15,583 bases of DNA from Candidatus Hermodarchaeota archaeon (GTDB lineage Archaea > Asgardarchaeota > Hermodarchaeia > Hermodarchaeales > Hermodarchaeaceae). The position numbers and the translations under genes are program-made. Positions 13,308-15,555 of this stretch are shown one piece after another; positions within the stretch are counted from its first letter, which is position 1, and each line of letters begins with the position of its first letter. The stretch spans positions 1 through 15,583 of the forward strand of contig JAEOTB010000038.1 in NCBI GenBank assembly GCA_016840065.1. Reading direction: 5' to 3'. Under the pieces are notes generated by a model. That model was not told the origin of the DNA, made no database searches, and was given only the letters and a program-made list of their open reading frames with translations.

Positions 13308-14438
13308 TCATGGGTCCTTGAGGAGAAAGTCTTCTATCTTATCACGAGCCTCTTCGCGACGCTCCTGATGCTTGGTCAAGTATTCGGTGGCAAGTTCAAT
13401 GCAGATACCCTTACACTCGCCACACAACATTTCTCCTGAGCGGCAGCGGCGCTCGATTTCTCCAAGCTTGTCATCCTCTGGCATGAATACTAATTGGTAG
13501 TTGGCAAAGATAGAGCAAATATCTGGATTTCCACCCAGTTTACGCTGTTCTGCTGCGTTACCCCTCCCACCTGTGAAAGCGTTCCTGAGCTTCTTCTCTA
13601 TAACTTTCGGTGGATCGACTGTGAACACAGCGGATTCAGGATCCGAGGCTGACATCTTACCACCTTGCTGAAGTCCAGGCAGAAACTTTGAGTGCAGTAT
13701 TGCAGGGCTGAAGTAGCCAATCTTGGGTAGGACATCACGGGCAACCCTGAAATGTGCGTCCTGATCGATGGCCAGCGGAATGACACAGGGTACATTCCTC
13801 CCAACCCTTACACTGTGAAGAATAGAGGGGACCGCTTGAAAGCTAGTGTAGAAGATTTGACCGATATTATGGGAATTAGTGAACCCAAAGGTAGCACGGA
13901 CGGTCGAGAAGGTTATCCGCTTTGCCACTCGTATCGCCAATGGGTAGAGCGTCCCAGCGTGTTCGCTGTCAATGATGATGTGAGTCTTGTCTGGTTCGAA
14001 GCCCATCGCGATGAGGTCGAGGGCGTTTTCCCGCGCAAAGAAGTTGGTCTGCTCCAGAGTCATTTCAAAATTGTGCACGAATTTCTCGTCGTCGGTGAGC
14101 TGGAAATAGAAGGGGACCTGGAACTTGTCCTGCATGTACTTGGTGAATATGAACTGGGTTAGGTGCCCGATGTGGGTGTGCCCGCTTGGACCACGACCAT
14201 TGTAGAGGAAGAAAGGATTGCCTTTCTCCAGCTCATCAAAAACCCACTTCATGTCGCGGTGTGAGAAATATACGCCACGCCGTAGGAGGTAATGTAGTTC
14301 TCCTGCGTGTTTTTCAAAACGCTTGAGCAGCGCCGCGTCAATGAGTTCTGCGCCGAATTGCTTGACAAGCTTGTCGTAATCGATGTCGCCCTTCACTTCG
14401 TAGGGCGTGACAACCATACTATCTTCGTCACTGGGCAT
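13308..14438 (-). CDS. trpS: Tryptophanyl-tRNA synthetase, archaeal/eukaryote type
   Basis: VTPYEVKGDIDYDKLVKQFG, LRRGVYFSHRD, GRGPSGHTHIGH (HIGH), TDDEK, IDQDAHF, KMSAS (KMSKS), AFTGGR. Confidence 0.98.
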   Translation of the reverse strand: MPSDEDSMVVTPYEVKGDIDYDKLVKQFGAELIDAALLKRFEKHAGELHYLLRRGVYFSHRDMKWVFDELEKGNPFFLYNGRGPSGHTHIGHLTQFIFTKYMQDKFQVPFYFQLTDDEKFVHNFEMTLEQTNFFARENALDLIAMGFEPDKTHIIIDSEHAGTLYPLAIRVAKRITFSTVRATFGFTNSHNIGQIFYTSFQAVPSILHSVRVGRNVPCVIPLAIDQDAHFRVARDVLPKIGYFSPAILHSKFLPGLQQGGKMSASDPESAVFTVDPPKVIEKKLRNAFTGGRGNAAEQRKLGGNPDICSIFANYQLVFMPEDDKLGEIERRCRSGEMLCGECKGICIELATEYLTKHQERREEARDKIEDFLLKDP

Positions 14439-14708: not shown

Positions 14709-14723
14709 AAAAAAAGCTTTAAA
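14709..14723 (+). promoter_or_regulatory. BRE + TATA promoter of tRNA-Trp
   Basis: AAAAAAAGC-TTTAAA, with the TATA element at 14718-14723, about 29 nt upstream of the tRNA 5' G. Confidence 0.65.
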
Positions 14724-14751: not shown

Positions 14752-14949
14752 GGGGTCATGGCCTAAAGTGCTGATCAAAAGCATGGGTAACCCGGCATGG
14801 CAACGGGCTCCAGAGTTAGCTTCCAGTAAGTAGCTGACCGGAAAACCGGGATGACGAGGTTCTGGAGCGATCGGGCGAAACCCGTAGATTGAGGGTTCAA
14901 AAGCCGCCAGAGAAACGCTCAGCGGCGGGAGATCCCTCTGACCCCACCA
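14752..14949 (+). tRNA. tRNA-Trp(CCA) with three introns (14767-14790, 14814-14879, 14902-14932) and encoded 3' CCA
   Basis: Acceptor GGGGTCA/TGACCCC + A73 + CCA; D-arm GCCT-AACCCGGCA-TGGC; anticodon stem ACGGG/CCCGT with loop CT-CCA-GA; T-arm GAGGG-TTCAAAT-CCCTC. Removing three BHB-like bounded inserts yields a 77-nt cloverleaf. Confidence 0.93.
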
Positions 14950-15027: not shown

Positions 15028-15555
15028 GTGGGTATGGTGTTCCGTCTGTTTGGTTTGCCTATAGACCCTATCGTGGTGTTAGATACCCTCTGGATAATAG
15101 GTCTCACATTGGGGGCTTTCATCTTTTGCATGGGTTCAACTTCGTCTAGAGCGGAAATATTCAACAATGTGGGTGAACCTATTCGAAGAGGCCGAGGGCC
15201 CATCACAAGTCGTCTTGTAACTCGAAGACGGAGATCCTCCTTGATTCGGTTCTATTACAGCAATCCACGGAAATTCAGAATTCTGGTTTTCATCGGTTCC
15301 GCTATTTTCGCCATGGTATTTATGATATTGTGGTGGTATCCTCAAATCCCCCATTACGAAGGCTTCATTGGAGTTCAGCTAACTGCGGAGCTCACTTTGA
15401 GGGTCAATATGTCAATGTTGATTGCAGGGCTATGTCTAATTCCCATAGGTCTACTAGTGACTCGTGGTTTCGGTAAAGGCAAGGCCCCACAACCCGACCG
15501 CGCGCGATCGAAGCTAACCAGGCGCCTTATGGATGAGGCGGGAAGCCCAGCGTGA
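15028..15555 (+). CDS. Hypothetical membrane protein (~3 TM helices, basic loop)
   Basis: 175-aa ORF with three hydrophobic stretches and an Arg-rich loop. TTTATATT at 14997-15004 suggests a leaderless start at GTG 15028 or ATG 15034. Confidence 0.7.
   Translation: MGMVFRLFGLPIDPIVVLDTLWIIGLTLGAFIFCMGSTSSRAEIFNNVGEPIRRGRGPITSRLVTRRRRSSLIRFYYSNPRKFRILVFIGSAIFAMVFMILWWYPQIPHYEGFIGVQLTAELTLRVNMSMLIAGLCLIPIGLLVTRGFGKGKAPQPDRARSKLTRRLMDEAGSPA

Follow-up and report, generated by a model that had tools for sequence, protein, structure and literature searches.

Introns of archaeal pre-tRNA-Trp are already known to act as guides, as in the euryarchaeal systems of Haloferax volcanii and Pyrococcus sR50 (PMC7994747; PMC4090602), and such a role has been hinted at for Sulfolobus. 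In S. solfataricus, the tRNA-Trp intron is a stable circle complementary to positions 34 and 39; Danan 2012 described two 7-bp complementarities and suggested a guide role, finding no consensus boxes, and the same circular intron was also detected in S. acidocaldarius (PMC3326292). In the latter species, L7Ae RIP-seq enriched tRNA-Trp as the single tRNA (log2FC 3.02, q 2.6e-11), with 'many reads of intron', and the table of RIP results assigns it no K-turn (PMC5539422, Table S1). Furthermore, S. acidocaldarius tRNA-Trp carries Cm34 as a measured modification (PMC7668247). Other related designs include the Nanoarchaeum equitans tRNA-Met intron RNA, from a different tRNA, which is stable, bears a single C/D-like pair and has a proposed, putative guide activity (PMC3491384), and the free-standing Pyrobaculum sR26, a separate gene with C34 of tRNA-Trp as its predicted target (PMC6009581). 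In the engineered BMG1 and halfmer RNAs, a D-side guide that has no box D accompanies a single intact C'/D' motif (PMC9670817; PMC7229835). BMG1 requires a 4-bp stem in the D register, which can rescue the missing box D (PMC9670817), and halfmers rely on the guide that precedes their own box D and not on the one that follows box C. Natural archaeal guides with a missing C/D motif are an open question according to Wang, Yang and Ye 2022 (PMC9670817).

The window analyzed here, a stretch of 15,583 nucleotides, belongs to a 2.59-Mb assembly that is 84% complete. Its source is an Asgard archaeon, because genomes of its family and close protein relatives bear the label Promethearchaeota; class labels among relatives are mixed, one of them being Hermodarchaeota. 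The window carries a tRNA-Trp(CCA) gene with the following layout.

13308-14438, minus strand: trpS (tryptophanyl-tRNA synthetase), above the cut-off of NCBIfam NF008927, divergent from tRNA-Trp
14718-14723, plus strand: TTTAAA, a TATA-like box some 30 nt ahead of the tRNA gene, a putative promoter element judged by its sequence
14752-14949, plus strand: tRNA-Trp(CCA) gene with three introns
14752-14766, plus strand: exon 1, positions 1-15
14767-14790, plus strand: D-loop intron at 15/16, 24 nt, its probable register taken from BHB pairing and intronless relatives
14791-14813, plus strand: exon 2, positions 16-37, with C34 at 14810 as the predicted 2'-O-methylation site
14814-14879, plus strand: anticodon intron at 37/38, 66 nt, bearing the guide
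14880-14901, plus strand: exon 3, positions 38-59
14902-14932, plus strand: T-loop intron at 59/60, 31 nt
14933-14949, plus strand: exon 4, with the encoded CCA end

Excision of 14767-14790, 14814-14879 and 14902-14932 yields a normal 77-nt tRNA-Trp(CCA) that is accepted by ARAGORN; in the window itself the program missed the gene because of its three introns, and a search of Rfam returned no relevant family. The anticodon intron has the features of an archaeal BHB intron: its BHB is relaxed (3/4 central pairs, likewise in 98/170 homologs) and two splicing-endonuclease genes (PF01974) are present in the source genome, which also encodes Nop5, fibrillarin and an L7Ae-family protein. Boxes similar to TTTAAA also lie upstream of tRNA-Trp in relatives, and the divergent trpS/tRNA-Trp arrangement recurs in the window's family (loci L002, L003, L005-L007 and L014). 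Downstream of the tRNA, a 175-aa ORF (15028-15555, plus strand) has no Pfam or NCBIfam match. Within one genus the additional introns vary and the guide intron is constant: genomes G003 (L002) and G002 (L005), of the same genus as the source archaeon, are without the 15/16 intron, have one inserted into the anticodon stem on its 5' strand, and are unlike the window with respect to the 59/60 intron. In addition, the 16S rRNA matches of family genomes are as long as 3.6 kb (L321, at G012:C71:619-4212) or are split (L322-L326), which suggests rRNA introns.

Within the anticodon intron, the following elements can be distinguished.

14814-14817, plus strand: first intron bases, pairing with 14861-14858 and extending the target over the 5' splice junction, with covariation
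14819-14826, plus strand: anti-guide containing CCAG, which would cover the guide by pairing when the RNA adopts the splice-competent BHB fold
14821-14833, plus strand: D' spacer, the one-time C39 guide, now targetless
14834-14837, plus strand: box D' CTGA
14838-14849, plus strand: canonical K-turn stem-loop CCGG-AAAA-CCGG, 4 bp, base pairs 1-4 covarying above all shuffles
14851-14857, plus strand: box C' ATGACGA
14858-14869, plus strand: spacer of 12 nt that follows box C' and contains the C34 guide TCTGGAGC at 14861-14868
14870-14873, plus strand: position of box D in canonical homologs, here ATCG (CCGA in Halobacteriales), with neither a box nor an in-register stem
14874-14879, plus strand: 3' strand of the relaxed BHB with the 3' bulge, 3 of 4 pairs in the central helix

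Box D', hairpin, box C', guide and intron had been placed at these coordinates in the initial annotation, all of which proved correct, and its reading was likewise borne out in that the intron is homologous to the C/D guide of euryarchaeal tRNA-Trp introns and its C'/D' K-turn is real. The K-turn cassette occurs once in the assembly. The guide had been described as antisense to positions 31-38 of the tRNA; in the unspliced RNA, it is antisense to positions 31-37 plus the first intron bases. In the precursor, the guide can pair with 14807-14817 over 11 bp (8 Watson-Crick and 3 G.U), spanning the exon-intron junction, with G14865, the 8th nucleotide after box C', paired to C34.

Compared with a canonical box C/D sRNA, the window intron has the internal C'/D' K-turn or K-loop and an 8-10 bp antisense spacer to a stable RNA, and lacks two defining features: it has no terminal boxes C and D forming a K-turn, and the target is not paired five nucleotides upstream of a box D or D', C34 sitting at the homologous position. 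The absence of canonical terminal boxes, noted before, was thus upheld, with ATCG at the D position and no box C (no RTGA) in the 5' part of the intron; GCGA, once proposed as a box D candidate, is not conserved and would aim at G37. Like members of the sR50-type family, the intron lies at 37/38 of tRNA-Trp(CCA) and holds a C34 guide 3 nt past box C' and across the 5' splice junction; it has no position-39 guide upstream of D' (0/16 in the window's family). The 37/38 site, box C' (position 5 often C) followed after 3 nt by TCTGGAG, and junction-spanning targets are shared with the euryarchaeal guide, as is the anti-guide CCAG within the D' spacer with the halobacterial homologs, where it is found in 17/17 introns (15/16 in the window's family). 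Unlike the halobacterial introns, the window intron is about 40 nt shorter and is without terminal box C, box D, terminal stem and position-39 guide. It is homologous to the sR50/Haloferax intron guide and most probably alike in its working mode. It is not a BMG1-type guide, given that the 4-bp stem in the D register was sought and is absent. A stem replacing C/D in register was also rejected for the homologs as a whole: helices that begin at segment D and reach 4 bp or more are no commoner than in shuffled sequences (14/172 vs. 18.8), and in the window's family the pairing is limited to 2 bp. The distance from box C' is the only invariant.

The single-K-turn guide design recurs in about 200 distinct tRNA-Trp introns of TACK and Asgard archaea. 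Among 19 family genomes, 16 such introns were found, all of which keep the order D', stem, C', 3 nt and TCTGGAGC, with D' as CTGA, CCGA or CGGA only; the spacer segment beside D' is their most variable part, and the boxes and C34 guide are conserved. A pattern scan returned at least 119 loci, and among the matches listed were Bathyarchaeia, Jord/Freyarchaeia, Odin, Asgardarchaeum, Nezha, Culex, Methanomethylicia, one Micrarchaeon and full-length introns of Halobacteriales, besides some chance matches. Three looser searches were run so that the pattern would not dictate the answer. With the interval between C' and guide left free at 1-6 nt, it was 3 nt in 33/33 Asgard tRNA matches; four further matches were obtained, three of which were checked and none of these is a tRNA. 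With no box imposed, RTGA stood exactly 10 nt before TCTGGAG in 85/89 Thermoproteota tRNA-Trp matches (11 nt in the other 4) vs. 0/17 chance matches, which places box C' exactly 3 nt ahead of the guide in those 85. Finally, a reverse search, in which the C39 guide was required and the C34 guide left open, gave 23 further introns, 23/23 with a C34-pairing core and 20 of them in register. Together with the losses of the C39 guide, which is missing from 16/16 introns of the window's family and from 57/143 TACK introns, these looser searches identify the C34 guide as the retained part. C34 and C35 each face a guide G in 199/199 introns, a count set in part by the search patterns. Only 8/172 short introns combine a box C with a segment D that ends in GA, six of these eight being Jordarchaeia. 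Nine homologs are off by about 1 nt (6-7 with a 4-nt spacer and three more off register); those in which the guide is shifted 1 nt from box C' (L229, L245, L246, L248, L300, L301, L316) offer natural tests of the ruler. Among other observations on these loci, in the L219-L221 introns the sequence of the 3' splice junction is repeated internally, possibly as a decoy or second splice site; L055, L057 and L121, on contigs titled as bacteria, carry an archaeal tRNA-Trp with the guide intron and are likely mislabelled or misbinned; and L319 (G049:C16:9480-9730) is an additional tRNA-Trp-like copy, 1.5 kb away from the other one, with anticodon TCA, a degenerate 5' half and the intron guide kept, probably a pseudogene or integration remnant.

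The design extends to a species in which L7Ae binding and Cm34 have been published. In the S. acidocaldarius genome, to which a published sRNA mapped at its published coordinates, the tRNA-Trp intron (49256-49197, minus strand) shares with the window intron the single K-turn, the 3-nt spacer and the guide; its end lies 4 nt past the guide, which leaves no room for a box D. Of the Sulfolobus tRNA-Trp introns described in the literature (PMC3326292; PMC5539422; PMC7668247), that of S. acidocaldarius belongs beside the window intron in its single K-turn, its guide at C'+3 and its want of a box D; it differs in keeping an in-register C39 guide, which the window's family has lost. The guide core CTGGAG was found in none of 62 listed S. 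acidocaldarius free sRNAs.

Covariation indicates what the guide pairs with, in counts that are inflated by the phylogenetic relatedness of the sequences and compared with shuffle counts that are not p-values. The first intron base is Watson-Crick paired to spacer position 9 (i1:s9) in 196/199 introns, as A-T, C-G or T-A; i2:s10 pairs in 156/199 vs. 96 shuffled, with all four Watson-Crick pair types, and i3:s11 in 100/199 vs. 46 shuffled. Pairing of s10 with C39 of the mature tRNA is possible in only 6/169. The guide covaries with intron bases and not with the mature 3' exon, and the target indicated by this covariation is therefore the unspliced pre-tRNA. The position-39 guide, where it survives (93/172 short homologs, in exact N+5 register in those 93), covaries with the last intron base in 92/93 vs. 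46 shuffled, again with all four Watson-Crick pair types.

These features are probably best explained by an active, box-D-less Cm34 guide at 14814-14879, which would, again probably, be tethered to its target in cis. L7Ae would bind the D'/C' K-turn, as the published enrichment of the S. acidocaldarius homolog suggests, and recruit Nop5-fibrillarin. The 12-nt spacer past box C' pairs, in the unspliced pre-tRNA-Trp that covariation shows to be its target, with positions 31-37 and with the 1-4 bases that open the intron, and C34, facing the 8th nucleotide after box C' (D-5 of canonical homologs), would receive the 2'-O-methyl group that is seen as Cm34 in S. acidocaldarius. Tethering of the guide to its target, most likely within a single molecule, might make box D dispensable, with action in cis somewhat favored over action in trans; a high local concentration would then make the box unnecessary, and the anticodon stem of the tRNA could conceivably fill the second Nop5 site. 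Afterwards, as the energies suggest, the anti-guide would cover the guide and the RNA would refold to the relaxed BHB before splicing, in a family in which the C39 guide has been lost. In the window precursor, the guide-exon fold in cis has a predicted energy of -31.6 vs. -25.0 kcal/mol for the BHB, in calculations confined to secondary structure, K-turn, tRNA tertiary structure and proteins being left aside; by this measure, unlike in the halobacterial precursors (1/17 Halobacteriales), the cis fold is favored in 14/16 family members and 119/143 TACK introns. In Asgard families f4, f13 and f19, separate genes encode free-standing sRNAs that have four boxes, the same guide and D-5 on C34; these families gave no intronic match, and the pattern by which the free-standing sRNAs were found required a D-like box. 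These free-standing loci (L336-L340, L348 and L349, each near position 1501) include L340, which also has a C39-type D' guide. The stability of the cis fold in short introns and the four-box, free-standing guides elsewhere both point to tethering.

Action in trans, from the excised circular intron or from another pre-tRNA, is a sub-case of this guide and, on balance, the less likely one. Trans action is known from the guide of Haloferax (PMC7994747; PMC4090602), and the stable Sulfolobus circle would suit such a mode (PMC3326292). Against it, the free-standing guides found with the D-requiring pattern all keep box D and the intronic ones mostly lose it, and the circle of the window intron folds with the guide hidden by the anti-guide and with at most 2 bp at segment D. 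The junction sequences of the circularized intron are, by inspection, not conserved as boxes, so that a box C/D made by circularization was rejected.

That the intron is a device of folding and splice timing only is rather improbable. L7Ae would sit on the K-turn, the antisense would hold the precursor unspliceable or shield the anticodon loop, and Cm34 would come from guide-independent Nop5-fibrillarin or a stand-alone enzyme; methylation of the former kind is reported in the title of one paper (PMC5558902). In vitro findings with D-less guides speak for this reading and against the guide: deletion of C/D abolishes D-guide activity and the link between box C' and spacer is described as loose, with no ruler (PMC7229835), and a box D mutant keeps 2% activity (PMC3001065, Table 2). 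The intron has neither box D nor a replacement stem, and its cis fold outcompetes the BHB. Also against the guide, an 11-bp duplex would exceed the 10-bp limit of the enzyme. However, a pure folding role needs no fixed 3-nt distance from box C', and that register coincides with D-5 on C34 in homologs with intact D and is accompanied by a C39 guide in exact N+5 register in 93 homologs.

That the intron is a relic in decay, or that its D' spacer has turned it to a new target in rRNA or a different tRNA, is very improbable, and sequence conservation has largely refuted this reading. The initial annotation had leaned this way, calling the guide degenerating or retargeted, and several facts fit: boxes C and D are absent, the C39 guide is gone throughout the family, the D' spacer, as was reported, does not match this tRNA's C39 junction, and the H. 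volcanii intron is dispensable (PMC4090602). The term degenerating is not supported, because the box-D-less layout is the majority state in TACK and Asgard, with invariant C34 pairing, fixed spacing of C' and guide, and compensatory changes; the boxes persist in all 16 family introns, and the guide with them, while the adjacent spacer drifts. As for retargeting, no 12-13-mer of the D' spacer has a complement in the rest of the genome. The best matches of the spacer to same-genus 16S and an incomplete set of relatives' 23S (the assembly itself is without rRNA) are no better than those of shuffled spacers, and the ARAGORN-called tRNAs of the genome gave nothing above shuffles, so that new targets were rejected. 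The 7-bp hairpin said to mask D' is indeed the minimum-energy fold of the linear intron, but only 2/16 family members form it. Least probable of all is that the antisense is the helix partner of an inner BHB in nested two-step splicing, with the K-turn incidental: its strict form is possible in all 13 introns of genus g2, but in only 30/199 introns overall and not in the window's genus, and the covariation follows the unbulged register i1:s9, i2:s10, so that it was rejected.

With less confidence than the guide role itself, and with somewhat less than an even chance of proving right, the intron guide that is most common in tRNA-Trp of TACK archaea and of several lineages of Asgard may methylate C34 with neither a box D nor a substitute stem, the site being set from box C' and by the tethered pre-tRNA itself in a methylate-then-splice switch. 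No description of the single-K-turn, box-D-less design or its range was found in the literature searched, which was short of most subscription papers and of the primary 2001-2008 studies, nor, in a search likewise with most subscription papers outside its scope, of tRNA-intron guides in Asgard or Bathyarchaeia. The tRNA-Trp intron family is a widespread natural candidate for a guide missing a C/D motif, and it goes beyond the BMG1 construct because the replacement stem is absent as well. The design is directly testable, since a genetically tractable host and recombinant Sulfolobus proteins exist. The biological stake is modest, a single modification that is dispensable in Haloferax. If true, the model would mean that nature departs here from the rule 'five nucleotides upstream of box D', and the guide role would offer a reason for the retention of this intron across TACK and Asgard archaea.
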